64,000 nt of DNA, taken from the NCBI GenBank assembly GCA_964543985.1, contig CAZJBW010000010.1, positions 9,684 through 73,683 of the forward strand, in the 5' to 3' direction. Below are positions 15,915 to 40,628 of this stretch, piece after piece. The stretch's first letter is position 1, and every line of letters begins with the position of its first letter. A program made the translations under genes and the position numbers. This stretch comes from an uncultured Pirellulaceae bacterium (GTDB lineage: Bacteria; Planctomycetota; Planctomycetia; Pirellulales; Pirellulaceae). Below the pieces are notes generated by a model. That model was not told the DNA's origin. It ran no database searches and was given only the letters and a program-made list of their open reading frames with translations.

Positions 15915-16061
15915 GTTCTCAAGTACATGGAATGTGATCTTGATTGACTCTAAAAATAGAAAATAGTTCGGCCCAATCATAGCCAAGTCGCATTTCGCGA
16001 TAGATTACGAAAGAAAAACCCAGTTAGAAACTGGGTTGGGTTCCTTCCCATTGTGCCCTCG

Positions 16062-23054: not shown

Positions 23055-23302
23055 TCTGGCTTGGAGGTCTGTTTGAGATTACCCCAATCCAGAACGTTTG
23101 GCAACGTTTTTGGGGAATTCCTAGTTTTTTCTATCGCTTCATGCGAGATAGGGTCGCTCCGTCGACCCTATCGAATTTCGGCATTTGTAGATTTGGGAAT
23201 TGAATGTGGTCGTTCCTGATTTCCTCAACTCGTCCAGCGACATATGGCCCAAGTCAACACTTCAAAGCGCAGGCACCTGCGCAACAAAAAAGGAGAAAAA
23301 GT

Positions 23303-23956
23303 ATGTCATTTACAGGCAACCGTTTCGGACAGTCCTTCGACAACGATGAAAACGCCACGTCATCAAACAAGAAACGTTCAAAAGAAGTTCGCTTACGGCT
23401 GAAAGAGCTAGGCCAGTTTTACAAAGCCGCTCAGATCGAAACCGCGAGGCTGTTGGAAGAGTGTCGAGCGGGCGGCTACTGGGCAGAAGAGTATGCAACG
23501 TTCTCAGACTTTGTTGAAAAGGAGGTGGGCATTTCATTGCGAACCGCTCAGGAAATGATGCGAGTGATTCGGAAATGTAATGTTGCGAAAGTCTCACCGG
23601 AAAAGATTGCTGAGCTGGGATGGAGCAAAGTTGCGCTGATAGCTAAGGATCTCAATGAGGAGAACGCTGCAAAGTTGCTGGCCGAAGTGAAAGACAAAAG
23701 CTACAGCCAATTGCAGGAGTCAACTCGTCAAAAACGCAAATCGAAGAACGCGGTCAAAGGCAAGTCTTATTCGAAGGTTGATAAGAACGAACAATCCGAT
23801 ATCTGCATCTCAGAAAGCGTGCTCGCCGCACTTCAGTGTGCGAGTTTGCATACTCGCGACTTTTCAACCCAAGCCAACTTGGAGTTCATGGCAGCCAAGT
23901 TTATTGAGCTTTGTCCACCGCCTTCGCGCGTTCCAGAAAACCAAAACTGGAACTAA
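23303..23956 (+). CDS. putative DNA-binding protein (ParB/KorB-like HTH region)
   Basis: ATG at 23303 preceded by AAGGAG 8 nt upstream. YKAAQIETARLLEECRAGGYWAEEYATFSDFVEKEVGISLRTAQEMMRV resembles plasmid ParB/KorB-type or DUF3102-type HTH segments. Confidence 0.4.
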   Translation: MSFTGNRFGQSFDNDENATSSNKKRSKEVRLRLKELGQFYKAAQIETARLLEECRAGGYWAEEYATFSDFVEKEVGISLRTAQEMMRVIRKCNVAKVSPEKIAELGWSKVALIAKDLNEENAAKLLAEVKDKSYSQLQESTRQKRKSKNAVKGKSYSKVDKNEQSDICISESVLAALQCASLHTRDFSTQANLEFMAAKFIELCPPPSRVPENQNWN

Positions 23957-24046: not shown

Positions 24047-26935
24047 ATGATCTTAATGCGACTTACAGTTTTTGCTTTGGCTCTTTTTTTGCCCGGGAGT
24101 CTCGTTGGCCCTGTTGCTGGCCCAACCAGTGGGCCGCAAACACAGCGACAAGTTGCGGCAAAAGAACAGAATCTTCAAGAACAGACGATCATCATCGCAG
24201 TTGATTGGTCGCAGTCGATGAGTCTGATGGATCCACCGCACCAGATCGAGGCGGCGATCAACCACTTCATCGACGTGTCCCGTTTGACTGGCGGGCGAAT
24301 AAAACTCGTCTTCATCTTCTTTCACGGACAGACTGTGGAAGTCATCGCCGGGCCCGATGGGTTGGCAGCCGTCGGCTCTGAAGCGATGCGCACTCAATGC
24401 CGGGAATACCTTTCGAAACCGTGCAGTGGTGCAACGCCATTGGACGGAGCACTAGAAGCGGTCAACAAAGCGCTTGAGCAGAGCGTTTCAAAAAACAAAA
24501 CGCTTGTAATTATCTCCGATGGCGAGCCCACAACTTCAATTCGCCCGGAAGTGTTTGGCCCAGTCAAGGAAGCTATCGAAAAAGAAGAAGCCAAGCGCGA
24601 GAAAAAAGGTGGTCGCCAGGCGGTTGCGGCATACCAAGCACGACTTCGGGATTGGCAATCAGAGGAATCCAAGTTCATTCAAGCAATTCAGCAACCATTG
24701 TTGTTCGAACGTTGCCTGAACTTGGCCGCGAAAACCAACCAACACAACGTTCGTGCTGTCAGCCTCGCCTTCACCCCCGACCTCGCCAAGCTTCGACAAA
24801 TTCACGATGCCGTTGGTGGCGCGCCAGAAGATTTTGTTTTCATTGACGAAAAGTCGTTGTTCGCCCGCATTCATGAACGGCAGGTGTTTGACAGCGTGTT
24901 GGCACTGCCGGTAATTGAATCGGCGGCAATCAAAAAACTGGAAGCCACGACCGCATTTAGTTTGGCCGGTGATTTGCGAGCATCCTGTCTGGTGGTTGTA
25001 GAACTTGATTCGATTCCTGATCTGGATCGCCATTCAACGATGTTGATGACGGTAGATGGTCAAGCCTACCGTCATACGACAGACAATGTTGACGATCGCA
25101 TCGTGGTTTCTCGCGATGCCAAAGGACGATTGGCCACACTTTCGACAGTCGCAGCGCCAGCCCAATCGGGATCATTCGATTTCAAAAGCCACAAAGACGA
25201 CATGACGTTTCCGGGATTGAAGGTTTATCGGTACGTGGAAGCGCCGAAGAACCTTCAATTCGTTGTGCATCCTGAGTCGCTGTCAGCCAACGAGCCTAGT
25301 GGCTTCGAGGTTAATCAGTTTTCAAACGAAAAATGGCTATGTGGACTTTCGTGGCTCAACGGAGCAACAATTCCTTTGAAGTCGGCGGACATTGTGTTCC
25401 GCCATCGCGAATCGAACCGAGACTTTATGGTTGACACCAGCCGCGCGCAGCATTTCAACCACCGGTTCAAAGTTCAGCCACCCGAGTTGCCACTTGGGTT
25501 GTTCGATGTGTTTCTGCGTTATGAACTCGAATCTGGGCTCACATTCGAAACACGGATCGAATCGCATTTTAAAGTGGTTGGCGTCAAAGAAATCATCAAG
25601 ATGGAACTTTTCGATGATTCCAATGCGATGGAATCAGTCGATTTTGGCTTGTTGGGCGACGTTGACACTAGCCGTACTGTCAAAGTGAAACTTCATTCTG
25701 CGACGCCACACGATCTGGACATCCTGATTACGACCGTCGGCTTGGAGGACTCACAGGGCAATGCAGTAGGACAGTCCTGGATCACAGTTTCAGATCCGAC
25801 GATCAATATCCCAGCCGGCGAATCAGCCGAGTTGAAATTTGAATGTTCAATTCCTGACGAGGTTCCTGATAATGTTGTCGATGGCTTATTTGAATCGCAC
25901 CTTGAAATCATAAACGCCAAAACTCTTCAGAAGATCAACATTGAACCGCTGATCGAAGGAACCAGCGATACAGAGTCTCTGAAACGCCTTTTGTTTACGC
26001 TCCGACGACCTTCTTTGATCGTCGAGGCCCATTACGCCCGTCGCCAGTGGATCGTCAAAGACGGTGATGATTTTTCACTGGAATTGAATGCAAACGTTTC
26101 AACGCCATTCTCCCGACAGGTAATTTTCACCGTTAAAACTACATCGGCGGCATCTCGCGACGTCGCCGTTCGCATTGCCAATCTTCGTCAGGAAGATGGC
26201 TCGGCTCAGTCGAAAATTGATGTTCTACCTGATAACGATTGGGTCGGCCCCAAACCGATCGAACCCGGTACGGCATATGAATACCGTGCCCGTTTTGTGG
26301 TTGAGAAACTTGGGCCCGATGACCCCCGTCGCTCGTACGGAAAAGTCATCATCTCTGGCAACGGGATGCGACCGGTCGTGATCAACATGGTTGCTGGTGA
26401 AGGCAAGTCATGGGCTCGAACCATTTGGTTCTGGTTTGTTTCAGTTGCCTGCATTTGCGGCTTAGTCGTCATCCGCATGTGGCGGCGAATCCGAACACTG
26501 AAGCAACTGACGCCGGGTAAGCCACGCCGATTCCGCGCCGGTGAGCCAGTCTTTGGCATGTTCGAATTCAAAGCGATCGACGGCCAAATCATGTTGGTGC
26601 CGAAAAAACCGATCGAGGTGAAGGACACCGATGGAGCTTTTTATCAGCAAAAAAATCCAATGCTTGTTGATTCAAGTACGCCTATTCCAATTCGGATTCG
26701 CGACAAGGACAAAGTCGAAATTGAAATCCAAAAAGTTGATGCCGCAGGAAAGCAGATTTTTGCCCGTGTAGCATCGGCAAGAATTAACAGCAAGAAGCTT
26801 CGACGTGCAAAACGACGCTTGTGGCTGTCCACAACCACAGCGACCACATCAATCCTTTTATTGGTCTTGATGCAACGTTGGCAGCCAGCCACACGAATCG
26901 TCCAGTATTTGATCGACGTATCCCCTTTTGCCTGA
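24047..26935 (+). CDS. membrane-anchored von Willebrand factor A (vWA) domain protein, 962 aa
   Basis: N-terminal signal/TM LTVFALALFLPGSLVG. MIDAS elements IIIAVDWSQSMS, GATPLDGAL and LVIISDGEPT. A long beta-rich middle region, then a TM near TIWFWFVSVACICGLVVI and another at the C-terminus SILLLVLM. Confidence 0.8.
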   Translation: MILMRLTVFALALFLPGSLVGPVAGPTSGPQTQRQVAAKEQNLQEQTIIIAVDWSQSMSLMDPPHQIEAAINHFIDVSRLTGGRIKLVFIFFHGQTVEVIAGPDGLAAVGSEAMRTQCREYLSKPCSGATPLDGALEAVNKALEQSVSKNKTLVIISDGEPTTSIRPEVFGPVKEAIEKEEAKREKKGGRQAVAAYQARLRDWQSEESKFIQAIQQPLLFERCLNLAAKTNQHNVRAVSLAFTPDLAKLRQIHDAVGGAPEDFVFIDEKSLFARIHERQVFDSVLALPVIESAAIKKLEATTAFSLAGDLRASCLVVVELDSIPDLDRHSTMLMTVDGQAYRHTTDNVDDRIVVSRDAKGRLATLSTVAAPAQSGSFDFKSHKDDMTFPGLKVYRYVEAPKNLQFVVHPESLSANEPSGFEVNQFSNEKWLCGLSWLNGATIPLKSADIVFRHRESNRDFMVDTSRAQHFNHRFKVQPPELPLGLFDVFLRYELESGLTFETRIESHFKVVGVKEIIKMELFDDSNAMESVDFGLLGDVDTSRTVKVKLHSATPHDLDILITTVGLEDSQGNAVGQSWITVSDPTINIPAGESAELKFECSIPDEVPDNVVDGLFESHLEIINAKTLQKINIEPLIEGTSDTESLKRLLFTLRRPSLIVEAHYARRQWIVKDGDDFSLELNANVSTPFSRQVIFTVKTTSAASRDVAVRIANLRQEDGSAQSKIDVLPDNDWVGPKPIEPGTAYEYRARFVVEKLGPDDPRRSYGKVIISGNGMRPVVINMVAGEGKSWARTIWFWFVSVACICGLVVIRMWRRIRTLKQLTPGKPRRFRAGEPVFGMFEFKAIDGQIMLVPKKPIEVKDTDGAFYQQKNPMLVDSSTPIPIRIRDKDKVEIEIQKVDAAGKQIFARVASARINSKKLRRAKRRLWLSTTTATTSILLLVLMQRWQPATRIVQYLIDVSPFA

Positions 26936-26946
26936 TTGAGAGAACA

Positions 26947-27882
26947 ATGAGTCATTCAAACGATATCAACCAGTTGTATCAGCTCTTGAAACAAGCGACG
27001 TGCGTTGAGTTCCCACCCGTGTTGACGTCCGCCACCACCATCTTTGGTATCGGAACAACCGGATCGAAGATCGTCATCAACCTGTTTCGGTTGCTTGAAG
27101 CCAGCGAAAGAGGTGTTCCTGACGGCGTGATTTTCATCGTCGCCGATGTTGATTCTGATGAAAGAGACGACAACCTGGCAGAAATAAGCCAAATCGTTTT
27201 CATTCCCTTGGGGAAATCTGGCGCCGGAACTAACACGCAGAACGGTTGCCGAATCATTGAGGAGCATTACGAACCAATCAAGTCAACGATCGAGAAGTCG
27301 ATGGTGACCTTGATGGAAAACGATGGATTGGAATCTCAATTCAGTCTTCCACCAGGAAAATCCCAATCGTTTTTTATTATCGGTGGCGATGGCGGCGGTA
27401 CTGCCGGTGGTGGTAAGGACAAGACTGCCACGGCCGCTCACGATGCGAAGCGTTCTGTCGGTTTGGAACAACTCGAAGTCAACGTTTGGCGCGTTGGCTC
27501 GCAGATTCCGATTCATGACGTGACTCGTTCCGTCAGCTCTGATGCCAAAGAACGAATTCCTGCAAATACGGCTGACAATCTCGAAGCGTGTTACATCCAA
27601 ATGAACACGAAACGGTATCTGACTGAACATCCACCCATTGGTGAGCCGTTCGAAGTCCAAATGAGTACTCGAACGTTTGCCAATGTCGAGTTCGATAACG
27701 TCAGCCGTGGCCACCGCCTAAATACCAACGAAGAACTACTGCACGTTATCGCTGGATGTCTTCAATCCCGAATCTTTACCGCCGCTGGCAAGGAAAACGA
27801 GTCGCGTCATATCGACGACATGATCTTGGGAACCACAGGTCAAACATTCCGCTCAACTGGATCTCCCGTATTGGAAAACTAA
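26947..27882 (+). CDS. divergent tubulin/FtsZ-superfamily GTPase domain protein (Tubulin_2-like)
   Basis: TTIFGIGTTGSKIVINLF (G-box 1), VIFIVADVDSD, GKSGAGTNTQNG and FFIIGGDGGGTAGGG (resembles the tubulin signature GGGTGSG). ATG at 26947, 11 nt after the vWA stop. Confidence 0.6.
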   Translation: MSHSNDINQLYQLLKQATCVEFPPVLTSATTIFGIGTTGSKIVINLFRLLEASERGVPDGVIFIVADVDSDERDDNLAEISQIVFIPLGKSGAGTNTQNGCRIIEEHYEPIKSTIEKSMVTLMENDGLESQFSLPPGKSQSFFIIGGDGGGTAGGGKDKTATAAHDAKRSVGLEQLEVNVWRVGSQIPIHDVTRSVSSDAKERIPANTADNLEACYIQMNTKRYLTEHPPIGEPFEVQMSTRTFANVEFDNVSRGHRLNTNEELLHVIAGCLQSRIFTAAGKENESRHIDDMILGTTGQTFRSTGSPVLEN

Positions 27883-29964
27883 ATGTCACGACGAAAAACA
27901 AACTACGATTATGTCCCAGCGCAGACCCGCTCATACGGTCGCCACGATTGCAAGTTTCCGATCGCAGCGTTGTTTGCGGAGGCCTGCGAGGTCGCGATGG
28001 CTCGGTCGATTGAATCACTACTGTCAGGAACAGATGTCCAAGGTGACCCAAAGGCCATGGTTCGCCGTTGCGAAGTGACAGTTTCGCAAGCCATCAAAGT
28101 TCGCCGTATTGAAACGTGTATGCCGTCCATACCGGAATTGGATTTTGGCCAGATAGAACTCCTAGCGGAAGCGGTTGCGGATCTTCAGCGGGACGATGGC
28201 CAATGGCGAGTAGATTACCGAGATCGGATGCAGTCGCTGGTTGACAAACACGTTGCCAACTTAAGTCTTCGATACGCTGAACTGGTTTCCGGACTGACGG
28301 TTACATACGGTTACCTGCCTGCAAACAAGTTGTTGATGCAGCTTCAACGTGACCTTGAGTCTGTTCGAAACGATCATACTAAACAGGTTTGGGATTCAGG
28401 TGACACAAGTCTGGCAGCTGATACCGCAGACACCTTGATGCGTTTTCACGAAATGGCGTCGGGGAAATCACGATGGCTCAAGAAATACTTGTCGCCATTT
28501 AAAGCCGATGACAAAGAAGAATTAGAACGCCTTTTCGAAGTGGCGGAATCGCTTCTAGAGAAACGATCGAATCAATTGCGAGCCGAGGCAGTTGTCGACG
28601 TAATCGACCAGCTCTTGGATCCATCTGTCGCCGGAATGATTCCGCAACTGGTTAGAAAGATCCAAGCTGAAGCCAAACGGCTAAAGGAAATAGCAGACGC
28701 GCTCCGTAAGCCGCAGCAGTTGCCCAAAAGCACCGCGACGACCACAGTTTTGGTCGATTCGATTCGTCGAAAAATTGATGGAGAAAGAACTCTTGAGCTG
28801 GCCTTCGCTGCGGCATTCGAAATTGCTGGCAAAGGGCGTGCAGAAGTTCTATCCGCGATTCGTCTTGGGATTCCGATCGGTGGCTGCCTCGTTGGGCCAC
28901 GCGAACTGGCGACGATGGAGCCGAATACAGCCAAGGCAGAGTTACTTAAGTTTGGACGTGACTTTTTTGCATCGGCCATCCCGGCAGCACTAAAAATCGA
29001 CATGACGAAGCCCGAGCTTCAGCTGGCCCTTGCAAAAAGGGCGGTCACCCTAATCCAGAAGTCTCAACCCTATTTGACTTTTGACAAGATTCCAGGTGCA
29101 GTCGAAAAATATGAGTTCTATCTGTTCTGTCACCCAGATCTTCGGACTTTGATTGACAAATATACTCGTGGGCGAATTCGGTTCGCCAATGCGCCTGATG
29201 ACAAACGATTTCACGTTGTGTCGAAACACATCGTTTCGTTGACATCCACGGTACTTGGAGCCGGTCATGCTCGCACCGATTATTACCGCGGTTTGTATCG
29301 GCGGGCACGAATGGGTGGCGACTTTAAGACCATCTATAACCATCCGGAGGAAACTGCTTACCCACTCGCGATCGCAGAACGTGCCTGCGATGAGCAAGAT
29401 AGTCGTGATCTGTTTACGTTGGCTACGTCAATTGGAGCGGTCGCCGAAATGGTTGATGGCGAAGAGAGCCGATTTATTTGTAGCCCACTTGATCATACGG
29501 TCGCTCCCCGTTTTAGCTCGATCGTTTGCGTTCGACGCCCAATCTCGGAAAAGTCTCTTCGGCGTTGGGTGAACCAAGGGTGGTTCAAGCAATGTGTTCG
29601 CGTTGGCTTGCCCGAGGTCGCTCATGATTGGGATCAAAACATGCGTATTCAGATGGATCAGCAAACTGATCATGAAATCGCAGAGCGACTTTGCGAATTG
29701 AAAATCTTGGAACGGACTGCCATCGGCTACCAATTTGGCTGCCCACATTCCGCAGGCATCCAAAAACACGAATCGTTGTTCGAACTTCGAAACAGTGAGC
29801 CGCAAGGCTTGATCGCCGCTGATTTTATTCGGTCAATGTTGGATCACGACGACCTTTACACACGGGTTCTCTTCGACGTCGTCATGGCGGAAGCAGCCGG
29901 TGTATTCGAGGAACGCCAGCTGCCAGAGTTCGCACAAACGATGGCACGCAAGTGGAGAAATTAA
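27883..29964 (+). CDS. hypothetical 693-aa protein, possibly the detached C-terminal part of a long tubulin-like protein
   Basis: ATG immediately follows the TAA of the GTPase gene (..CTAAATG..). Mostly helical with no catalytic motif seen. Confidence 0.55.
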   Translation: MSRRKTNYDYVPAQTRSYGRHDCKFPIAALFAEACEVAMARSIESLLSGTDVQGDPKAMVRRCEVTVSQAIKVRRIETCMPSIPELDFGQIELLAEAVADLQRDDGQWRVDYRDRMQSLVDKHVANLSLRYAELVSGLTVTYGYLPANKLLMQLQRDLESVRNDHTKQVWDSGDTSLAADTADTLMRFHEMASGKSRWLKKYLSPFKADDKEELERLFEVAESLLEKRSNQLRAEAVVDVIDQLLDPSVAGMIPQLVRKIQAEAKRLKEIADALRKPQQLPKSTATTTVLVDSIRRKIDGERTLELAFAAAFEIAGKGRAEVLSAIRLGIPIGGCLVGPRELATMEPNTAKAELLKFGRDFFASAIPAALKIDMTKPELQLALAKRAVTLIQKSQPYLTFDKIPGAVEKYEFYLFCHPDLRTLIDKYTRGRIRFANAPDDKRFHVVSKHIVSLTSTVLGAGHARTDYYRGLYRRARMGGDFKTIYNHPEETAYPLAIAERACDEQDSRDLFTLATSIGAVAEMVDGEESRFICSPLDHTVAPRFSSIVCVRRPISEKSLRRWVNQGWFKQCVRVGLPEVAHDWDQNMRIQMDQQTDHEIAERLCELKILERTAIGYQFGCPHSAGIQKHESLFELRNSEPQGLIAADFIRSMLDHDDLYTRVLFDVVMAEAAGVFEERQLPEFAQTMARKWRN

Positions 29965-29965
29965 C

Positions 29966-30799
29966 GTGATCGACCCGTCCATTATTGATTTCACGCCGAC
30001 ATTCTACTTGCTAATGATCGGGTACTTCCTCGTCCAGATTGGCAGAGTTTTTGCACAGCGTTATCCCAAGACAGCAAACTATCAATCTGGTTTGGCGGTG
30101 TTCGTGTTTGCTTACTTAACCCTGCCTCGACTTTTCTACAAACCACCATACTGGCTGGCTGATGGAATCGGAATTTCAGTTCGGGCTGCCGCCTTCGCCG
30201 CAATCGCCTATGGGCTGGGCGGGTTCGTAGCCATGTCTCATATGGGCATCAAATCACTATTGCAAAAAACGAAGCTGCGTTGGCAGACTTGGATGCAAAA
30301 CCGTGAACTTCGTGAGCAAAGTCAGATACAAGACGAAGAACGACGTTTGCGCGCGGCTCATCAGCCGAGTTACGACGAGATGCAGGAACTTGCGCGGCTT
30401 GAACAGGAAGAGCAGGAACGGCGCGATAAAGAAGCACATTCCCGCGAGACTGATCGGCAACGACGACTGGAACTAAGGCTTAAAGCAGAATTGGAGATGG
30501 AGTTTGCCGCTGACAAAAGCAGGCGAGAGAAACTCGATCAACTTATCAATACTTATGCGGACGAATCGTTGCCAGTTGATATCTACCAGCAACGGCTTGA
30601 GATGATCCAAAATGCGGTTTCTCGAAACTCCCCGGCCAAAGCCAAACAGTATCACACGATGCAAGAAATCATAGACGATTTTGATAAGCAAATCGCAGAC
30701 GTCAATAGTTCGACCAACTCGGAGTTTGAAAAGGAATCGCTTCGTGCACTGATTCTGATGGAACGTCAAAACGTGATACAGAGGTTTATCCAACCATGA
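29966..30799 (+). CDS. membrane protein (about 3 TM) with long charged coiled-coil tail
   Basis: Likely GTG start at 29966, 1 nt after the upstream stop, with GGAGA upstream. TMs FYLLMIGYFLVQIG, LAVFVFAYLTL and AAAFAAIAYGLGGFVAM. Then EERRLRA...LEQEEQERRDKEAHSRETDRQRRLELRLKAELEMEF. Confidence 0.55.
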   Translation: MIDPSIIDFTPTFYLLMIGYFLVQIGRVFAQRYPKTANYQSGLAVFVFAYLTLPRLFYKPPYWLADGIGISVRAAAFAAIAYGLGGFVAMSHMGIKSLLQKTKLRWQTWMQNRELREQSQIQDEERRLRAAHQPSYDEMQELARLEQEEQERRDKEAHSRETDRQRRLELRLKAELEMEFAADKSRREKLDQLINTYADESLPVDIYQQRLEMIQNAVSRNSPAKAKQYHTMQEIIDDFDKQIADVNSSTNSEFEKESLRALILMERQNVIQRFIQP

Positions 30800-32538
30800 G
30801 TCGCTATTTAATCGGACGATCCCCGGGCAACAGGCAAAACGTCTACTTGCCTATCAAAACGTTGCCAACACACACACATCTGATCGGAGCAACGGGTACT
30901 GGTAAAAGTACTTTGATCATGCGCATCCTAGCGCAGTTGATGATCGGGATGGTCAACCCGACGACGATTTTCGTGATTGATCCCTTGGGTGGGTTGGCGA
31001 ATGTGATCTTGAATTTCATGGCTCATCCGACGTTGTGCCCTGAATCGGTTCGCAAGCGCCTTGTTTACATTGAGCCGGCAAAAACAGAGTATTGCATGCC
31101 ATTCAACCCACTGATTTTCGATGATGAAAATGACTTGTATTATCGAACCGGTCGAACCAGTGATGTAATGTTACGTAGTGGAAAAAGTCACGACATGACT
31201 TTGATGCTTCGACTGCGTCGATGGCTTTACAACTGCTTCTATTCAGTAGGTGCTTTGGGTTACGCACCCGCAACGGCCCAATTTCTAATCCAGCCCGGAA
31301 CCGATCAGCACGACCAACTCTTGCGCCAGATTCCCGACCGTCTTCGCAATGAATGGGCCGAAATCTTGAAGGCTGGGCTGCGTGAGAGAATCCATGCCCT
31401 AGACAGCACCCGGAACCGTTTGAACCCCTATTTTACTTGCCCAGTTCTCAACAACATGTTTAGCAGTACTCAAAGTTATTTTGACGTACCGCGATTCATG
31501 CGTGAAAAAAAGATCGTCGTTGTGAACTTGGCTCCAAAAGGAAAAATTGACCCGCACGTCGCCAATGCAATCGGTGGAATGATGGTGAACGAAATTGTTC
31601 AGACTGCACGAAATTTACCGAAGGAAATTGTTGACCCCACGATGTTGGTACTTGATGAGTTCCAAAACTTTGTTTCAGAGGAAATGTATTCAACTTTGCC
31701 AGAGACAAGGCAGCTCGGTTTGCAACTCTTACTAAGCCATCAAAGTTTTTCACAGCTGCTGCAGGGTGAAATTGACATGCGAGGTATCGTTTGGCAGGCG
31801 AGGAATCGTTTCATGTTTGCTAACGACGCTGATGACGCTGATCTTCTTGCCCATGAGCTTGCTTCCTTATCTTATGATCCCAAGAGCTTGAAGGATCAGA
31901 TCGAGGTCTTTCGGCAAAAAAAGATTGGTCAAAAACTGATTCGGCTAAACAACTTCAGCTCCACAAGCACTAAATCGAACGCCTATGACGAAACAAGTTC
32001 ACATGGTTCCAGTCGCGGGCGAAGCTACAATTCAAACGATCCGTTCGGAGGCATAACACATACCGAGGGCAGCAATGTCAATCGCGGTAGCTCAAGGAAG
32101 CAGGCGGACAGCAGTGGTAGCAACCACGGCTGGTCGGAAACGTTGATTGATGAACTGGAAGACTTTTATGAGGTAAGTTCACGAACCTATCACACGTTCG
32201 ACGAGCAAATGCGAATATGGGCAAAACGAGTGCGACGTTTGTTGACTGGTGAGGCGTTGGGTAAATTCAAAGACGACAATCGAATTCACCATATCGACGT
32301 AGACCAGGTTGTGATCCCAATGATTCCGGCTCTGGTGGACTTGAAAGCGAAATTGTTGGAAGAGAATTTTGCCAATCGCGAATTGTTCATCCCAACGGTG
32401 GCCATCCAAGAACGTTGGGCTGACTTTACTGCAAGGTTAGGTGCGGGAACCAGTATTCCGCCCAACCAACGAGAAATTGTTGACGCCATTCGAATTGAAC
32501 ATGGTGGGGATTCAAACAACGATTCTATTTTCCGGTAG
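30796..32538 (+). CDS. VirD4/TraD/HerA-like P-loop ATPase (copy 2)
   Basis: Walker A LIGATGTGKSTLI and Walker B MLVLDEFQNF. FVIDPLGGLA and MPFNPL blocks. ATGA overlap with the upstream gene. Confidence 0.75.
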   Translation: MSRYLIGRSPGNRQNVYLPIKTLPTHTHLIGATGTGKSTLIMRILAQLMIGMVNPTTIFVIDPLGGLANVILNFMAHPTLCPESVRKRLVYIEPAKTEYCMPFNPLIFDDENDLYYRTGRTSDVMLRSGKSHDMTLMLRLRRWLYNCFYSVGALGYAPATAQFLIQPGTDQHDQLLRQIPDRLRNEWAEILKAGLRERIHALDSTRNRLNPYFTCPVLNNMFSSTQSYFDVPRFMREKKIVVVNLAPKGKIDPHVANAIGGMMVNEIVQTARNLPKEIVDPTMLVLDEFQNFVSEEMYSTLPETRQLGLQLLLSHQSFSQLLQGEIDMRGIVWQARNRFMFANDADDADLLAHELASLSYDPKSLKDQIEVFRQKKIGQKLIRLNNFSSTSTKSNAYDETSSHGSSRGRSYNSNDPFGGITHTEGSNVNRGSSRKQADSSGSNHGWSETLIDELEDFYEVSSRTYHTFDEQMRIWAKRVRRLLTGEALGKFKDDNRIHHIDVDQVVIPMIPALVDLKAKLLEENFANRELFIPTVAIQERWADFTARLGAGTSIPPNQREIVDAIRIEHGGDSNNDSIFR

Positions 32539-32898
32539 CGGTGCGGTGTTTTGTTTTGCCAAGAACTCAAGTCTCGGAAGACCGAACCCGTTTAATTCGG
32601 AGTAGTGGATTCTTGCCTCGACCTGAGCATCGCTGATGGTCGCAATTTCTCCAATCAGCACACGATACAACTGTTCACGGTACGCGTGGCGTTTCTCAAA
32701 ATGGACTCCAAATTCGTTGTGGTAGTAGTTGGACAAAGCCATCAAGTCGCGGATACGATTTGACGTGTTCGTTTGGGAAGCGGCGACCTGTTCGTAGTCA
32801 ACCAGTGCGGTGTCGAACGATTCAATGCGGTCAATTTCTCTTGCCGCTTCTCGAACGGCTTCTGCATGATGCCAATGCTGATTCGAGATCTGTTCCAT
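32512..32898 (-). CDS. hypothetical protein (128 aa)
   Basis: ORF convergent with the ATPase gene and overlapping its 3' end by 27 nt. No motif recognised. Confidence 0.4.
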   Translation of the reverse strand: MEQISNQHWHHAEAVREAAREIDRIESFDTALVDYEQVAASQTNTSNRIRDLMALSNYYHNEFGVHFEKRHAYREQLYRVLIGEIATISDAQVEARIHYSELNGFGLPRLEFLAKQNTAPLPENRIVV

Positions 32899-33119
32899 GA
32901 AGCGACAATACGCCGATTAGAATGCAGAATCAATTGGCGCAAACGGATCTGATGTTCTGGTGCGCCTCGACCGAAAGATTGGTTCCGTTGGTAGTACCGA
33001 CTATGGTTCCATCGTTCGACCGGGGCGGGTCATCGAACCGGCGATGGACGGTCATCCGTAACCCTACCACCCTCCGGCACTTACGGTTTGCCAAGGACTG
33101 TCGTCGCAAGCTCCTCCAC

Positions 33120-33185
33120 CCTTGGCTTCATTGCCATGTTCAGCGTTGGAAACCGCTTTTTGAATGCATGGCAATGAAGCCAAGG
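33120..33185. repeat. perfect 19-bp inverted repeat (hairpin) with 28-nt loop
   Basis: CCTTGGCTTCATTGCCATG (33120..33138) pairs with CATGGCAATGAAGCCAAGG (33167..33185). The loop contains a small AGCG..CGCT stem plus TTTTT. Located in a divergent intergenic region. Confidence 0.9.
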
Positions 33186-33384
33186 CTGCGCCTTCGCAAA
33201 CCACGCCGTTTTTGTTGACCAAAGTTGGATTAAATTTCGACCTTTGACAACGTGATCCAAACGGCTGCACGCCGCTACCGCGTCGTGGTAAGTGCCCTCC
33301 AAAGCCGTGTACTTAATCAGGTTTAAACTTGAATACCTAGCGAATATTTTTCGCTTGACAATCCAATCGAACTATCGAATAACA

Positions 33385-33876
33385 ATGGTGATCGTCAGCA
33401 ATTTCGCTGGTGACAAATTTCCCCCCTTTTTTATGGAGAACAATTCTCTCAGGCGGCTTTACGCTAGTCGGCCCACGTCATCCGACATGCTTCACGACCA
33501 ATCGAAGTTGGATGCGGTCGAGTGCTTTACGCGTTCGCTTTCATTCATTCCCGGCGGTTGGTTAAAAGAGTGTCTCAGGGCTAGAGGCGAACCGTTTGCA
33601 ATGCCAATTTGCCACGGGCTGTTTCTGGTTGACGAACCAAGTGTCGCTAACAGAATCAAGCGACATTTTTGTGACGACGTTTTTAACGAAGACGATGATC
33701 GTCTACGGCTTATCGAATCGGGATGGAACTCTATTCGCTCGACCGGTTTGTTTGGTCGAGAAATCGACGGCTTCGTGGTTTTGGGTATCGACGGGCTTGG
33801 CTACGATTTTTTCGAAGCGCATTGGGAGCCTCTTTATGACCTGCTTGGTTATAAATGGCATCTAAACGTCGACTGA
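33385..33876 (+). CDS. hypothetical protein
   Basis: ORF 33292..33876. Candidate ATG starts at 33385 or 33433. No motif recognised. Confidence 0.4.
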   Translation: MVIVSNFAGDKFPPFFMENNSLRRLYASRPTSSDMLHDQSKLDAVECFTRSLSFIPGGWLKECLRARGEPFAMPICHGLFLVDEPSVANRIKRHFCDDVFNEDDDRLRLIESGWNSIRSTGLFGREIDGFVVLGIDGLGYDFFEAHWEPLYDLLGYKWHLNVD

Positions 33877-34101
33877 AAACTGTTGATAAAAATGGAAACG
33901 CCGAACTTGACTTTTGACGGTTCGGCGTTCTAATTGGGGTATCGCTCTGAAAACGAGTGCCTCCATGTACGGTTAAATCCGCCCGGTGCTTCGGCACTGA
34001 AGATTGATCGCTTGGTTGTAATTCGCCCAAAAGGCCATTTCATTCCGAAGACTGTTACTTTTAATAGTTCTTCGGAATCTTTTTTTCCGCTCTTGGATTT
34101 A

Positions 34102-34992
34102 ATGGCAATCAGGATTGGGCCAATGCCTCTTACCGAACTCGATATGACTGTGCTGAAAACAGTCGCGACGTATTACGTTCTTACCCGTGAACAAGTGCAG
34201 GGCGTTTGTTGCGCCGAACATTCAAGCGGTCGCGGTACGCGCAAACGACTCAGTCGGCTTGGCAAGGCTGGCTACATCGTCAAACATCGCGTTCCAGTGG
34301 CCCTTCCTGGCACAAACGGAGCCGCTCCGGTGTATTACCCCACCAAAAAGGGTTCGGACGCGCTAGCGAGCTATTTTGACGATGAACGCTTTTACGCAAC
34401 CAACACCAAGAACCCACGCGCTGATCGCTTGTCGCATTGGATTGCCTGCAATTCGACCCGAATCTTAGTCGAAAAGGCAATTCAACAACTCCCGCAGGTT
34501 GATTTGATTCGATGGATCAACGAATGGGAAACCGTCAACAAAGACGACACGAAATCAGATCAATTCTGTCTTCACACGCAACTTGTCAAAGATCCCCCGT
34601 TGAGTTGTTCGCCGGATGCTGGATTCATGATTCGCTACCAGGATCAACAAATGGTTTACTACCTAGAACAAGATCGCGCAACATCCAGCCCACGCCAGGT
34701 CGCCGCCAGAAAGCATCGCGGCTACGCCGAATTGTCGAAACAAAACGGTCACAAGAAACACTTTCCAGATCTAACAGTCCCCTACTTTCGCGTTCTGTTC
34801 ATCACGCCAAGCGAAACACGAGCCAAAAAAACGCAACAAGAGATGAAAGATCGAAGTGGAAAAGAACTTTGGCTGATGATGAACGAAAAAGCATTGAACG
34901 AAATCAACTTCTTCACCGGCAATGTTGCTATCGACCACGAAGGTGAAGTTGGGCCACTACTGACGCTTCCTGAGACAACTGGCCAATCCTGA
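34102..34992 (+). CDS. replication-relaxation family protein (copy 2)
   Basis: LDMTVLKTVATYYVLTREQVQGV....GTRKRLSRLGKAGYIV, then PDAGFMI...YYLEQDRAT...RVLFITPSE. Same architecture as 5713..6603 but highly divergent. The start could also be 34123. Confidence 0.65.
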   Translation: MAIRIGPMPLTELDMTVLKTVATYYVLTREQVQGVCCAEHSSGRGTRKRLSRLGKAGYIVKHRVPVALPGTNGAAPVYYPTKKGSDALASYFDDERFYATNTKNPRADRLSHWIACNSTRILVEKAIQQLPQVDLIRWINEWETVNKDDTKSDQFCLHTQLVKDPPLSCSPDAGFMIRYQDQQMVYYLEQDRATSSPRQVAARKHRGYAELSKQNGHKKHFPDLTVPYFRVLFITPSETRAKKTQQEMKDRSGKELWLMMNEKALNEINFFTGNVAIDHEGEVGPLLTLPETTGQS

Positions 34993-35107
34993 CCACTAAC
35001 CGCTTATCGGTTCAATCAACACATTCAGGGTGTGTCGTGCGAGCCGATTGGCGTTGTGGATATTCGTGACTCACGACTGTGAGTTTTTATTTCATTCCTC
35101 TTTCTAT

Positions 35108-35374
35108 ATGGACAATTTACAAAACGACAAATCAAAAAAGCCAGTTCGTGTCTTTCGATCCGGCGGCATTTCAGTCGCAGTGTTTGGAAACACCTCTGAC
35201 GAAGGCAATGTTTTTCACAAGTTAAGCGCCGAGCGCGTTTACAAAACTGGAAACAAGTTCGCGACAACGAATTCGTTTTCGTTTAACGAACTGCCAACCG
35301 TAGTGATGCTCATGAAGCGTGCTTGGTACTTTGTACTTGAGCTCGAATCACAAGCAAAAGACAAACAAGATTAG
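35108..35374 (+). CDS. small conserved protein, paralog family A (copy 2 of 3)
   Basis: MDNLQNDKSKKPVRVFRSGGISVAVFGN...ERVYKTGNKFATTNSFSFNELPTVVMLMKRAW aligns with the copies at 16062 and 35875. Confidence 0.5.
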   Translation: MDNLQNDKSKKPVRVFRSGGISVAVFGNTSDEGNVFHKLSAERVYKTGNKFATTNSFSFNELPTVVMLMKRAWYFVLELESQAKDKQD

Positions 35375-35570
35375 TCGTGCAAAACTAAGTGGGCCAACCC
35401 CTGATACGGCCCACTACGACTGGTGCTAGTCACCAGCGTGACCGTTCAACTTGATCGTGATGCCATTCCTATGGTTTTGGGCAGTCCGATTCGTTTTGAC
35501 AGTCATGGTGAACATCGTTTTCTCCAAGCATCACCTCTCTCGTGATCGCTCGGTACCTCTAAGTACCAGC

Positions 35571-35595
35571 CCGGTAATTTGTTTACCGGTTTTTT
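35571..35595 (+). terminator. intrinsic terminator-like hairpin
   Basis: CCGGTAA-TTTGT-TTACCGG followed by TTTTTT. Lies about 200 nt downstream of the 35108..35374 stop. Confidence 0.5.
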
Positions 35596-35618
35596 GTTAA
35601 TCACGTTAGGAGAAATCT

Positions 35619-35831
35619 GTGAAAGTCTTACTTACCCCTGCGCCGAAAGACGCAACTTGTTTCTGGTGCCGCAAGCGCAAAAAGGATTGCGTAACTGCGG
35701 AATTTTCCAATGGATTTGTTAAAGGCAAAATCCTCTGTTTCGATTGTTTCGTCCGCGCTACGCGCGTCCAGTTTGAACCGGTCAGCGAGGAAGTTGCAAA
35801 AGCAACCGAGGTGCCCAACGCGAAGGCGTAG
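35619..35831 (+). CDS. small Cys-rich (zinc-ribbon-like) protein, 70 aa
   Basis: GTG start with AGGAG upstream. Two CxxC pairs: CFWC...CFDC. Confidence 0.45.
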   Translation: MKVLLTPAPKDATCFWCRKRKKDCVTAEFSNGFVKGKILCFDCFVRATRVQFEPVSEEVAKATEVPNAKA

Positions 35832-35874
35832 GTCGCTTCAATCCACTTTTTACAAACTCCACTAAGGAAAAATC

Positions 35875-36159
35875 ATGAACCGAAGTCACCCAGAAAAAGT
35901 GTTCCGTATTGGTTACGTCAGCGCTAGCGTGTTTGCACGCAAGATCGAGAAGGACGGCGAACCCGAACGGATCGTACGCAGCGTGAACCTGCAAAAGCGA
36001 TATCTGGACAACGGCGAAACGAAGTTTAGCTCCTCATTTGGACTTGGCGAATTGCCGCAGGCCATTGAGGCGATGCGACTTGCGTTTGATCATTTGGCCG
36101 AGCAAGAAGCTGATGTTGCGTTGCAACAGCCCAATTTGGGCTCCAGAGGTGCATCATGA
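35875..36159 (+). CDS. small conserved protein, paralog family A (copy 3 of 3)
   Basis: KVFRIGYVSASVFARK...LQKRYLDNGETKFSSSFGLGELPQAIEAMRLAF matches the same pattern as the other two copies. Confidence 0.5.
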   Translation: MNRSHPEKVFRIGYVSASVFARKIEKDGEPERIVRSVNLQKRYLDNGETKFSSSFGLGELPQAIEAMRLAFDHLAEQEADVALQQPNLGSRGAS

Positions 36160-36374
36160 GCAGGCAAAAGGAAGGAGGTGTCATTCGAATCGACGAGGCG
36201 TATAGCAAACAATGCGTCTTGTCCCGATTAGGAGTCTCCCAGCGGTTTTGGGACAAAATGTTGGATGAGGGGCTCCCCTACACCAACGTTGGACACACTC
36301 GCTGGGTTACCGGCGAAGAGATCATGAACTACTTGAAAAAGTTTGCGCAAACCAAACCGGTTCAGGCAAAGTAG
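36156..36374 (+). CDS. excisionase/AlpA-like small HTH protein (candidate Xis)
   Basis: 72 aa, ATGA-coupled to the upstream gene, ends 5 nt before the integrase ATG. LGVSQRFWDKMLDEGLPYTNVGHTRWVTGEEIMNYL resembles HTH_17/excisionase-type motifs. Confidence 0.5.
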   Translation: MSRQKEGGVIRIDEAYSKQCVLSRLGVSQRFWDKMLDEGLPYTNVGHTRWVTGEEIMNYLKKFAQTKPVQAK

Positions 36375-36378
36375 TTTC

Positions 36379-37926
36379 ATGGCTCGCCCACCAGAAATTG
36401 GCAACGTCAAGTTGTATCCCGATCGGCCATTGCGCGATTCTGACAAAAACGGTTTTGTGCTGAAGTTCTATTGCCCCATTCAAGGCAAACGGATTCGCAA
36501 AAACGCTGGAACGCGCGATCGCCGGGAGGCACGAAAAATCGTTCGGGAATGCAGCACTCGACTTACAAACGGAGAGTACGTTGCGTCTGGCGGGTTGATA
36601 TCCGCTGAACAGGAGAAGGTTCGAAAAGCGATCGAACAAGTCGTACCACAGGGCGTTTTTTCAGGCGTCGAAACAGATTCTGGTCGTTCTTGGGATGCCT
36701 GCAAGGATCAGTATTTAGCGTACAAGAAGAAACGAGTCCGGGATTCATCATATGCTGATATCACGTCGCGACTCGACCTTGCTGAGCGAATTATTGTAGG
36801 CTATCGCGAAGACAATGGACTTCAAGGCGTCGGGTCAATTCAAGAGAATTGTACGCTATCGGCGATGGAATACCTTCAGGACAGACTGCTCGCCGGAGAT
36901 GAATGCCGCTATGACTACCGCTCTCCGATGACTGTTAACACGGCGATGGGAGCAATCATGGCATTCGTTCGTTATTGTGCCCGCCACGAATGGATCGACA
37001 AGGTGCCGATCGTCGATCGCTTGGAAGTTGACAACCCGATGAAAGGGCGCCCGATTTCGGAATCGGAGTATGAAGCGATGCTTAAAGCTACGCCCAAAGT
37101 CGTCGGAGAATCGGCAACTGACTCCTGGCGCTTTGTACTCAGGATCATTTGGACAACTGCTTTTCGAGTGGGCGACGTGATGTCGTTCTCATGGGACGAC
37201 GAAACCGAGATCCACCCGCTTTGGAAAGACGATCGCCGTGAACATCCGACAATTGCCATTCCAACGAAACAAAAGAACAGGAAGAAGCAAGAGATCCCCA
37301 TGTTGCCCGAATTGGAGCGGCTTCTGGTTTCAATTCCACAGTCGCACAGGACAGGGTGGATTGCCAATCCTCGGCCGCTGGATTCGCAAAACGCTCTTGT
37401 CAGGCGTCCAACTCGCAAGCAACTCACGAAGTTAAAGAAGAGCAGTTCAAATACGAAAATCGCAGAGATCTACGGCGTAAGCGAAGCAGCCGTCCGAAAA
37501 TGGCTTCTAAATCCAAACTCGCTAAACCAACGTTCGTCGACAATCTCACAACCACCCAATCTCATTCAACGTCTGACGAAGGAACGAGTCGGACGTGTTA
37601 TCGCTCTGATTGGAAAGGAGGCTGACATTGTCGTTCAAGACCAAGATGTCGATCAACGAAAACGACTGAAGTATGCTTCCGCTCACGACATTCGCCGTGG
37701 CTGCGCACAGCGTTTGATCAACCAAGGCGTTTCCGCTGAATCGCTGAAACTAATCTTACGTCATGCAGATTTCGCGACCACCGAAAAATTTTATGGGGCC
37801 GTAAAAAGCGTCCAGTCAGCATCGTCCGAAATTCGAAAACTGATTTCGGCAGTTCCGGACAAACAAGCCCCCGATCTAAGCGCGGCAGAAGTCGCAAAAC
37901 TTCGTCAGCTACTATCTCAGATATAA
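36379..37926 (+). CDS. int: tyrosine recombinase / phage-type integrase (with internal HTH-like insertion)
   Basis: Catalytic-region motifs TAFRVGDVMSFSW (R), HDIRRGCAQRL (HxxR) and LRHADFATTEKFY (H..Y). Adjacent to the tRNA 3' end. Confidence 0.85.
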   Translation: MARPPEIGNVKLYPDRPLRDSDKNGFVLKFYCPIQGKRIRKNAGTRDRREARKIVRECSTRLTNGEYVASGGLISAEQEKVRKAIEQVVPQGVFSGVETDSGRSWDACKDQYLAYKKKRVRDSSYADITSRLDLAERIIVGYREDNGLQGVGSIQENCTLSAMEYLQDRLLAGDECRYDYRSPMTVNTAMGAIMAFVRYCARHEWIDKVPIVDRLEVDNPMKGRPISESEYEAMLKATPKVVGESATDSWRFVLRIIWTTAFRVGDVMSFSWDDETEIHPLWKDDRREHPTIAIPTKQKNRKKQEIPMLPELERLLVSIPQSHRTGWIANPRPLDSQNALVRRPTRKQLTKLKKSSSNTKIAEIYGVSEAAVRKWLLNPNSLNQRSSTISQPPNLIQRLTKERVGRVIALIGKEADIVVQDQDVDQRKRLKYASAHDIRRGCAQRLINQGVSAESLKLILRHADFATTEKFYGAVKSVQSASSEIRKLISAVPDKQAPDLSAAEVAKLRQLLSQI

Positions 37927-38582: not shown

Positions 38583-38596
38583 GCTTGTTCAAAAAG

Positions 38597-38670
38597 CACA
38601 CCCGGGAGGATTCGAACCTCCAACCCTCGGTTCCGAAGACCGATGCTCTATCCAGTTGAGCTACGGGTGC
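38597..38670 (-). tRNA. tRNA-Arg (anticodon UCG)
   Basis: Minus-strand sequence GCACCCG-TA-GCTC-AACTGGATA-GAGC-A-TCGGT-CTTCGGA-ACCGA-GGGTT-GGAGG-TTCGAAT-CCTCC-CGGGTGT-G folds as a cloverleaf. The anticodon loop is CU-UCG-GA. CCA is not encoded. The first acceptor pair is G1.U72. Confidence 0.9.
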
Positions 38671-39560: not shown

Positions 39561-40628
39561 TTAGCGTGGTTTCTTTTTTGCAAGTCGTTTGGAAGCAGAC
39601 TTCTTTGTCGTTTTTTTCTTGGTCGATTTCTTTGCTGCTTTCTTCTTTACAGCAGCTTTCTTTTTGGCCGGAGCCTTCTTCTTCGCTGGTTTCTTTGCGG
39701 CTACTTTTTTGGTTGCTTTCTTCTTGGCAGCTTTTTTAGGTGCCGTCTTCTTCTTGGCTGGTTTGGCGGTTTTCTTAGGCGTCGCCTTTTTCTTGGCTGG
39801 TTTGGCGGCCTTACCAGTCTTTGTCTGCTTGGCTACTTTAGTCGCTGTACCGCCTTTTTCAGCAGCTTTCGCTTTTTTGCCTTTGGTGGCAACTTTCTCT
39901 TCAACGACCTCTTCCTTTACGGGTTCAGGAGCTGGTTTCTTTTTTCGTTGTCGTTTAGGGAAACGTTCCCGAGCGTCCGCGTCCAGGCTAAGAAGTATGG
40001 CGCGAGTATCGTTGTTAAAAGGGCTGCTGGTATAAGCGACAGCCAATTGGTGCACGACCGAGAAAAATTCGACGCCTTTGTTTTTGGCGATTGCTCGTTC
40101 CATTCCAGGAACGACTCCCTTTTCCGATTCTTTTTCATCGATGATGCCGACGGTGTACAACAGGTTAACCATCGATCGATCGACACCGATGGAGTGTCCA
40201 CCGAGTCCATTTTGGGCTGTATAGGAAACGACGAAGGGCGTGGCCCCTTTGTAGTCTTCGATGGTTTGTACGGCTTTGCCAAGGTTCTCCTTGCGTAGCA
40301 AATCGATGTCGAAACTGTAGTGAGTTTCAAACATTGAATGCAGCGTCTTCTTCAAGCGGACAGCCGCTTGATTAGGTTCGCTTAAGCAGTCCATGGTTTC
40401 GGACAGCTCAACAGCCGTCGTTACGCGGACTTCATTCCAATCAAAAAAGCCATTTTGCAATCGAGCGAACGCCTCGTCGGCGGCTTCGAATTTGGAATTT
40501 TCCAGGCAGCAAGCGTATAGCAAATGCTCCAAGACAGAACGTTCGCTGGGAGGTTTGACGGGTTGATAATGTTTTTTGGCAACTCGATGCAACTTGGCCA
40601 GTTTTGCGGCGCGATTTGAAACTGCCAT
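39561..40628 (-). CDS. HhH/EndoIII-like domain protein with Lys/Ala-rich histone-H1-like C-terminal tail
   Basis: The N-terminal ~230 aa (LEHLLYACCLENSKFEAADEAFARLQNGFFDWNEVRV..) resemble the EndoIII-like helical domain. The C-terminal ~120 aa are KKAAKKPAKKK-type repeats. Confidence 0.5.
   Translation of the reverse strand: MAVSNRAAKLAKLHRVAKKHYQPVKPPSERSVLEHLLYACCLENSKFEAADEAFARLQNGFFDWNEVRVTTAVELSETMDCLSEPNQAAVRLKKTLHSMFETHYSFDIDLLRKENLGKAVQTIEDYKGATPFVVSYTAQNGLGGHSIGVDRSMVNLLYTVGIIDEKESEKGVVPGMERAIAKNKGVEFFSVVHQLAVAYTSSPFNNDTRAILLSLDADARERFPKRQRKKKPAPEPVKEEVVEEKVATKGKKAKAAEKGGTATKVAKQTKTGKAAKPAKKKATPKKTAKPAKKKTAPKKAAKKKATKKVAAKKPAKKKAPAKKKAAVKKKAAKKSTKKKTTKKSASKRLAKKKPR

Follow-up and report, generated by a model that had tools for sequence, protein, structure and literature searches.

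What does a tubulin-like GTPase do in an operon that opens with an exported von Willebrand factor A (vWA) protein and closes with a coupling-protein-like ATPase? The question is raised by five plus-strand genes at positions 24047 to 32538 of a 64,000-nt stretch of DNA from an uncultured Pirellulaceae bacterium (GCA_964543985.1, contig CAZJBW010000010.1, positions 9,684 to 73,683 of the forward strand), hereafter called the window. The reading that we favor, to which we assign a probability of roughly 0.55, is that the five genes form a membrane-associated DNA-mobilization operon of tRNA-integrating elements, furnished with a vWA/FtsZl1 add-on. It builds on what is directly observed at the loci, namely, the identities of the genes, the splitting of one tubulin-like protein over genes 2 and 3, the conserved gene order, and the linkage to a relaxase and an integrase.

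With respect to the layout of the operon, the list of open reading frames (ORFs) and a direct reading of the junctions reproduce all coordinates and junctions given in a preliminary description of this DNA. Gene 1 (24047 to 26935, 962 aa) ends in a TGA at 26933 to 26935, followed after 11 nt by the ATG at 26947 of gene 2 (26947 to 27882, 311 aa), whose TAA (27880 to 27882) directly abuts, with 0 nt between them, the ATG at 27883 of gene 3 (27883 to 29964, 693 aa). The TAA of gene 3 (29962 to 29964) lies 1 nt from the GTG start at 29966 of gene 4 (29966 to 30799, 277 aa), and gene 4 overlaps gene 5 (30796 to 32538, 580 aa, stop codon at 32536 to 32538) in an ATGA at 30796 to 30799. That the operon is one packed unit is borne out both by these junctions and by its recurrence as a block on other contigs. 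Compared with its 75%-identical copy in the related locus L001 (a 24-kb contig), the block shows amino acid identities of 71 to 85%, nonsynonymous divergence (dN) of 0.10 to 0.21, and saturated synonymous divergence (dS); where it can be computed, dN/dS is 0.06 to 0.08, and the five ORFs are therefore real, constrained genes under strong purifying selection. Promoter and terminator scans gave counts at or below shuffle expectation and are uninformative on transcription units. We rejected the idea that a sixth conserved gene precedes gene 1, as the ORFs in this position belong to three unrelated types across the family loci; hence, the five genes are the right unit. In the window, the position is occupied by a 250-aa ORF (23204 to 23956) with PHROG matches of unknown function only, a homologue of which occurs in locus L004 and is absent from the other family loci, where the two other unrelated types are found.

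Gene 2 carries a T1 loop (GIGTTGS, nt 27046 to 27066), a T3-like motif (GAGTN), and a T4 signature (GGDGGGTAGGG, nt 27385 to 27417), and it matches the Pfam family Tubulin_2 (PF13809) narrowly over the threshold (E = 7.6e-7; score of 29.1 bits, cutoff of 27). This family is the FtsZl1 family of Makarova and Koonin 2010 (PMC2875224), and precomputed PF13809 matches are present on six of the seven close gene 2 homologues from the first search. Across the gene 2 family (52 sequences), three glycines (G36, G92, and G150) never vary, and four more (G94, G147, G151, and G155) hardly do. PDB sequences gave no significant match to gene 2 alone and weak matches, almost all to FtsZ and RepX, to the family profile; a PHROGs search yielded nothing useful. 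An AlphaFold2 model from the single sequence reached a pLDDT (predicted local distance difference test) score of only 35, and the model built with the 52-sequence alignment (pLDDT of 88.9) was used instead. Its best Foldseek matches in the PDB are FtsZ (1w5f, E = 2.4e-6), CetZ, tubulins, and PhuZ, with a probability of 1.0, at TM-scores of 0.38 to 0.48, on account of which we call the fold divergent; Rossmann-type enzymes match at lower TM-scores only (0.2 to 0.3), and in a viral structure library the top matches are phage FtsZ and tubulin proteins. The tubulin/FtsZ assignment, made preliminarily from motifs, is thus upheld by the PF13809 match, the conserved glycines, and the structural similarity to tubulin/FtsZ that Foldseek found. 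Judged by the model, gene 2 encodes a stand-alone, divergent FtsZ/tubulin-fold protein of the Tubulin_2/FtsZl1 type with predicted GTPase activity.

Gene 3 has no Pfam domain, and it aligns end to end with residues 332 to 1017 of a fused 1,020-aa protein, P0025 (E = 6e-12), of which residues 47 to 318 align with gene 2. Since genes 2 and 3 map onto consecutive parts of P0025, they correspond to a split FtsZl1, gene 3 being the separate equivalent of the C-terminal region that fused FtsZl1-like proteins carry. The single polypeptide of about 1,000 aa that characterizes FtsZl1 is accordingly not found here, gene 2 supplying 311 aa and gene 3 the remainder. The preliminary description had called gene 3 a large helical protein, which stands as a domain call but missed that the protein is the C-terminal part of a tubulin-like one.

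The last two genes point to DNA translocation. Gene 5 contains a Walker A motif that starts at residue 31 (GATGTGKST, nt 30886 to 30912) and a Walker B motif (LVLDEF, nt 31645 to 31662), and its Pfam matches above cutoff are TrwB_AAD_bind (27.2 bits, cutoff of 20.5), T4SS-DNA_transf (22.6 bits, cutoff of 20.1), and DUF87, with TraG-D_C just under its cutoff (20.1 bits against 22). A match to NCBIfam SXT_TraD (1.4e-10) is partial and far under the whole-protein cutoff, and neither gene 5 alone nor its family profile found a significant match among PDB sequences. Its placement as a Walker ATPase of the FtsK/HerA/VirD4 clade, already made in the preliminary description, is confirmed by the motifs and by the Pfam and NCBIfam matches, and we read it as a TrwB/TraD/VirD4-like coupling ATPase of the FtsK/HerA superfamily with predicted activity. 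No N-terminal transmembrane domain is present; the sole segment over the hydropathy cutoff (residues 58 to 76, score of 1.66) lies past the Walker A motif. A separate protein with three transmembrane segments, that of gene 4, is always encoded immediately upstream of the ATPase gene, with overlapping codons. Its three N-terminal hydrophobic segments precede a highly charged, coiled-coil-like C-terminal half, an architecture common to the homologues, so that the earlier call of a three-transmembrane coiled-coil protein holds for the family; in the window copy, however, the segments are weak, falling below the strict Kyte-Doolittle cutoff, and it is in the homologues that they are clear transmembrane helices. 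We propose that gene 4 is the membrane anchor of the gene 5 ATPase.

Gene 1 was described preliminarily as a membrane-anchored vWA protein with a metal ion-dependent adhesion site (MIDAS), and the Pfam match to VWA_2 (E = 3.1e-6, above the gathering score), the conserved MIDAS, and the hydropathy profile agree with this. An N-terminal signal or anchor (residues 2 to 20, by hydropathy), retained as a signal-like segment in all homologues, precedes the MIDAS motif DWSQS (residues 53 to 57, nt 24203 to 24217), which is followed by TPLD and ISDGE; the MIDAS residues (DxSxS...T...D) are complete and conserved in all homologues. Next come about 600 aa without a recognizable domain, a transmembrane helix (residues 793 to 811, by hydropathy), a loop of about 120 aa, and a hydrophobic C-terminal segment. 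From this profile, the vWA domain and the roughly 600 residues after it are predicted to be extracytoplasmic and the 120-aa loop to be cytoplasmic.

What follows the operon places it on a mobile element. A small antisense ORF (32512 to 32898, minus strand, 128 aa, no Pfam match) shares 27 nt with the 3' end of gene 5 and has homologues between the ATPase and relaxase genes in L001, L006, L007, L014, L015, and L020. After it come a 194-aa ORF and, 1.4 kb downstream of gene 5, a MOBC-type relaxase gene (33934 to 34992, plus strand; Replic_Relax, PF13814, E = 6.9e-19) of the PD-(D/E)XK fold, PF13814 being a PD-(D/E)XK family that CONJscan treats as the MobC relaxase superfamily (PMC5357655). Several small ORFs separate the relaxase from a tyrosine recombinase, the integrase (36343 to 37926, plus strand; Phage_integrase, E = 2e-10). 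Beyond it lies a tRNA-Arg (TCG) gene (38596 to 38670, minus strand, found by ARAGORN and Rfam), probably the integration site and the right boundary of the element, and to its right are the housekeeping genes for YebC, IF-2, and NusA (by Pfam). A search of the window for a repeat of the tRNA-Arg end, which would mark the left boundary, gave nothing above chance. No relative of the element was found in a scan of viral contigs, and the element is therefore not a recognized prophage.

Relatives of gene 2 are rare. When 1.84 billion cluster representatives were searched exhaustively with HMMER, 57 relatives were recovered, nearly all of 300 to 340 aa and one of them fused, and a word-indexed profile search contributed one further protein. 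Scanning 185,579 species genomes gave two loci, both in Pirellulaceae; these are the sole named genomes with relatives, and the taxonomic attribution rests on these two matches. The only copy from a cultured strain, L004 (Rhodopirellula maiorica SM1, NZ_ANOG01000258.1), is degraded, with a frameshift in gene 3, neither ATPase nor relaxase, and rearranged fragments of gene 1 and of the homologue of the 250-aa upstream gene of the window. Gene counts per locus were obtained with purpose-built profiles searched against all fetched loci. A gene 1 homologue precedes the tubulin-family gene in every locus having upstream sequence, and a gene 3 homologue follows it in every locus having downstream sequence. 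Where enough flank is available, gene 4 is found in all tubulin-family loci (8/8) and the gene 5 ATPase in five of the six intact ones, and a Replic_Relax relaxase lies downstream of the block in all six intact loci (the window, L001, L005, L006, L007, and L044). The order gene 1, tubulin-like gene, gene 3, gene 4 is retained down to 22 to 28% gene 2 identity. The five genes thus co-occur elsewhere, recurring as a block on other contigs.

This distribution bears on whether the block might be a housekeeping membrane-remodeling or vesicle system that sits in the island by chance. Planctomycetes have unusual endomembranes, which counts for such a role. It is also the role originally predicted for FtsZl1-vWA operons (PMC2875224). 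The subfamily is, however, very rare (57 representatives in 1.84 billion, and two loci in 185,579 species genomes, one of them degraded), and the block is always found in an integrative-element context. Rarity and constant context also support the earlier suggestion that this is not a housekeeping system, and we consider the housekeeping explanation highly improbable.

In the reverse direction, a metagenome scan seeded with the ATPase gave relatives at 37 to 43% identity, among which gene 4 homologues immediately precede and overlap the ATPase gene in the tubulin-less loci L013, L014, L015, L017, L018, and L022 (E = 5e-11 to 3e-46, with a gene 4 profile built solely from tubulin-adjacent copies). 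In the tubulin-less ATPase loci, the small antisense ORF and then the relaxase gene follow downstream, with integrases nearby; an integrase accompanies the series from gene 4 to the relaxase in L012, L014, and L044. In L012, L014, and L015, the 10 kb upstream contain no tubulin or gene 3 homologue, and a hidden tubulin homologue in these three loci was rejected, neither the family profile nor Pfam giving a match. Because the order gene 4, gene 5, relaxase occurs without a tubulin gene, genes 4 and 5 belong to the mobilization core. As compared across these loci, the core consists of gene 4, gene 5, the antisense ORF, the relaxase, and the integrase, with genes 1 to 3 as an add-on in a subset. 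In L014 (6926 to 11764), the gene 4 and 5 homologues are directly preceded by the gene for another kind of vWA protein, whose 753 aa include a signal-like segment and a C-terminal transmembrane helix, and there is no tubulin-like gene. A rough neighbor-joining tree, calculated without support values, shows the ATPases linked to a tubulin gene as paraphyletic with respect to those of tubulin-less loci, which suggests that the vWA/tubulin-ATPase association is old and was then lost in some elements rather than being a recent insertion.

The preliminary description had taken the block as cargo of the element, which is contradicted by the comparison with L001. The two loci are collinear at 80% nucleotide identity over window positions 24173 to 37889 (13.7 kb, from gene 1 to the integrase), and both have RadC and a toxin-antitoxin pair. 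Between that pair and gene 1, L001 has a sigma factor and a Ser/Thr kinase where the window has other genes, and the prokaryotic Argonaute (pAgo)/PD-T7-1 region of the window is replaced by other genes in L001. Cargo thus differs between relatives while the block keeps its position, and the block is therefore part of the element backbone. Within the collinear stretch, the relaxase, the integrase (98% identity), and the 194-aa ORF are 97 to 98% identical to those of L001 (dS of about 0.1), whereas the block has diverged to saturated dS; it follows that the elements are mosaics, which implies a recent exchange of modules, with a breakpoint between 32898 and 33292, after the small antisense ORF and before the 194-aa ORF.

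Several of these observations could also be accommodated if genes 1 to 3 were a conflict module, acting in anti-phage or anti-plasmid defense or in surface or entry exclusion, and merely co-expressed at the head of a transfer operon. Sister elements dispense with genes 1 to 3, and, in relation to the relaxase/integrase part, the block and the small antisense ORF behave as one module that was exchanged. The island does hold conflict genes: as the preliminary description had noted, a pAgo system (short pAgo, 10052 to 11623, minus strand, PADLOC pAgo_I, 4e-141; SIR2-APAZ, 11544 to 14366, minus strand, Aga_SIR2-PNTD1-PNTD2, E = 0) and a toxin-antitoxin pair (ParDE, a ParE toxin with its upstream partner, lying with RadC to the left of the block) are carried alongside, in addition to PD-T7-1 (14439 to 15986, minus strand, PADLOC, 3.9e-125). 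Moreover, tubulin proteins with coiled-coil or helical C termini adjoin membrane proteins with extracellular vWA and beta-rich domains in systems interpreted as conflict systems (PMC7159879). Against this, the GAP1-N2 GTPase and fibronectin type III (FNIII)-repeat partners that define those systems are absent, as is any effector domain, and the block has a fixed position in the backbone, whereas the true defense cargo varies. The relaxase is present in every intact family locus with flank, and spacers of 0 to 11 nt tie genes 1 to 3 to genes 4 and 5. With the PADLOC-DB 2.0 models, genes 1 and 2 have no match, genes 3 and 4 have matches only at E values of at least 0.01, and gene 5 has weak P-loop matches (mad8 at 1.9e-11, HerA, and DndH), so that no defense system is recognized, in keeping with the earlier statement that the block is not a named one. 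A conflict role for genes 1 to 3 is possible on this evidence, and we regard it as doubtful.

Tubulin-superfamily proteins on mobile elements are known as partition motors, and a TubZ/PhuZ-like cytomotive filament, which would segregate the circular form of the element or set its position while it is excised and replicating, has to be weighed as well. The sequence and structure matches of gene 2 include RepX and PhuZ, and a Prim-Pol gene in the relative L006 suggests replication of an excised form. However, no TubR-like DNA-binding adaptor is conserved, the gene upstream of gene 1 being of three unrelated types, and the tubulin-like protein is invariably partnered by a membrane vWA protein that is exported and by an ATPase anchored in the membrane, both of them foreign to partition systems. 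We consider a partition role very unlikely and, like the housekeeping role, less likely than a conflict module.

Of the options left standing in the preliminary description (defense, exclusion, or DNA transfer), DNA transfer is the one favored by context, because genes 4 and 5 are a conserved pair followed in many loci by a MOBC relaxase and an integrase; defense is not supported by PADLOC. In the DNA-mobilization reading, the tyrosine integrase would first excise the element, and the MOBC relaxase would hand its DNA to a split, coupling-protein-like translocase formed by genes 4 and 5, with the coiled-coil protein of three transmembrane segments as the anchor and the TrwB/TraD-type ATPase as the soluble part. 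Genes 1 to 3 would be a sub-module translationally packed onto genes 4 and 5. Gene 1 would present its MIDAS vWA domain outside the cytoplasm, where it would give envelope or cell-cell contact as a mating adhesin or a scaffold, and genes 2 and 3 would act as a cytoplasmic split FtsZl1 made up of a GTPase and its helical partner, whose GTP-dependent assembly at the cytoplasmic face of gene 1 would organize, position, or gate the translocase. Three things here are our inference: the physical complex, the actual transfer of DNA, and what the vWA/tubulin part does.

Several points weigh against the DNA-mobilization reading. The Pfam scores of gene 5 barely exceed their thresholds. Neither VirB4 nor any other type IV secretion family is found among the Pfam matches of the larger ORFs of the window, and a mobilization module would therefore need another channel. 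The loci with enough flank number six or seven and are all metagenomic contigs. The sister elements L012 and L015 do without genes 1 to 3, and the add-on is consequently not essential to the core function. Transfer, excision, and complex formation are all predictions, and pairs of a tubulin and an extracellular vWA protein are interpreted elsewhere as conflict systems (PMC7159879).

A bolder variant of the DNA-mobilization reading holds that the five proteins and the MOBC relaxase are a self-sufficient DNA-transfer apparatus that does without a type IV secretion system, with the tubulin-superfamily GTPase and the exported vWA adhesin replacing the machinery of mating-pair formation. It would operate in a phylum, the Planctomycetota, that is not known to have FtsZ; we judge such an apparatus improbable.

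The island extends beyond the genes considered so far. A second Replic_Relax relaxase (5713 to 6603) and a second HerA/TrwB-like ATPase (7916 to 10048, 710 aa, PADLOC mad8 at 2.7e-20) lie to the left of the pAgo genes. The second relaxase is 52% identical to the relaxase that adjoins the tubulin block in L005. Its arrangement with the ATPase and pAgo recurs in L048, where it is preceded by metal resistance genes; from this arrangement, we take the island to be composite and to extend left past the window, into metal resistance genes. Four iteron-like direct repeats of about 25 to 28 nt (AACGGTTCAAAAACCAGACCAG...) at 2430 to 2536 lie inside the ORF at 1641 to 3119, and this ORF and the one at 1036 to 1644 have homologues beside a coupling-type ATPase in L012. 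Just outside the element, adjoining YebC, six imperfect repeats of 30 to 42 nt (39589 to 39801) are contained in the ORF at 39561 to 40628 (minus strand, 355 aa, no Pfam match), and upstream of NusA, in the intergenic DNA at 45964 to 46001, a 19-nt unit (CAAAATCTATCGAGCCTGT) occurs twice in perfect tandem.

Few branches of the tubulin superfamily are as divergent as FtsZl1/Tubulin_2, and for its function the literature that we found offers two computational guesses (membrane remodeling and a conflict system) and no experiment. The subfamily described here supplies a compact and testable context, consisting of five co-translated genes, the last two of which belong to a relaxase-coupled DNA translocase. 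Should the DNA-mobilization reading be true, tubulin-like GTPases would have a new job, that of organizing DNA export at the membrane, and there would be a handle on horizontal transfer in Planctomycetota, in which the conjugation machinery is essentially unknown; were the stand-alone apparatus true, it would be a new kind of conjugation in this phylum. If the vWA/tubulin part were instead an exclusion or defense device, it would give tubulin/vWA conflict systems of the Aravind type their first functional anchor.

FtsZl1/vWA operons and elements with MOBC relaxases and coupling proteins are each already known, and a full-text literature search retrieved no paper combining the two. The first were described by Makarova and Koonin 2010 (PMC2875224), to whose account the FtsZ-like/vWA operons mentioned in the preliminary description correspond and who predicted a role in membrane remodeling or vesicles. 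Like those operons, the window operon has a divergent FtsZ-like domain with a Gly/Thr-rich T4 signature, a long coiled-coil or alpha-helical C-terminal moiety (about 1,000 aa when fused), an adjoining vWA protein, membrane-bound or secreted, whose MIDAS is intact, and further lineage-specific transmembrane proteins, and both are known from computation only, without an experimental function. Unlike in those operons, the GTPase domain (311 aa) and the C-terminal moiety are two genes in the window, the frequent FtsZl1 partners (a P-loop GTPase, protein kinases, and OmpA-family proteins) are absent, and the operon, which is carried by a mobile element, ends in a coupling-protein-like ATPase and adjoins genes for a MOBC relaxase and an integrase. 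The GAP1-N2 GTPase-centric tubulin/vWA systems of Kaur, Burroughs, Iyer, and Aravind 2020 (PMC7159879), reported in Firmicutes and Actinobacteria and predicted to be nucleoside triphosphate-dependent conflict systems, likewise combine a tubulin domain bearing a coiled-coil or helical C-terminal extension with a membrane protein that has an extracellular vWA and a beta-rich region. They differ in that the five genes of the window and their neighbors include no GAP1-N2 GTPase, FNIII-repeat protein, or effector-associated domain, and in that the vWA and tubulin genes of the window are joined to a DNA-mobilization module.

With respect to mobilization, compact integrative mobilizable elements (IMEs) with a VirD4-type coupling protein, a MOBC relaxase, and an integrase are documented in streptococci as IME_Class_8 (PMC5357655), and the window shares with them the order of coupling ATPase, relaxase (PF13814), small genes, and integrase at one end of the element. 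In contrast to IME_Class_8, the integrase of the window is a tyrosine rather than a serine recombinase, its ATPase is without a transmembrane domain of its own and is paired with a separate coiled-coil protein of three transmembrane segments, and three extra genes (the vWA gene and the split tubulin-like genes) precede the ATPase. The canonical type IV coupling proteins VirD4, TrwB, and TraD also differ from gene 5 in having an N-terminal transmembrane domain, and they resemble it in being encoded with a relaxase, a position that gene 5 keeps in its relatives. A survey of plasmids and chromosomes of Planctomycetota (10.1101/2024.01.22.576637) found no conjugation reported between members of the phylum, no complete chromosomal mating-pair apparatus, and MOBF and MOBP relaxases only. 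As in TubZRC and PhuZ systems, a tubulin-superfamily GTPase is carried by a mobile element, with equally modest structural similarity; unlike in those systems, a TubR adaptor and a centromere are lacking, the GTPase has membrane proteins for partners, and the sequence family is another one (Tubulin_2). The "DNA translocation operon" of Bacillus phage 0305phi8-36 (PMC3357382), a bioinformatic proposal whose deletion gave no phenotype, belongs to a lytic phage, has no vWA protein, and has an actin-like (MreB) cytoskeletal protein; like the window operon and its downstream genes, it brings a cytoskeletal protein together with membrane anchors, a VirD4-like ATPase, and a relaxase of the MobC-like kind.

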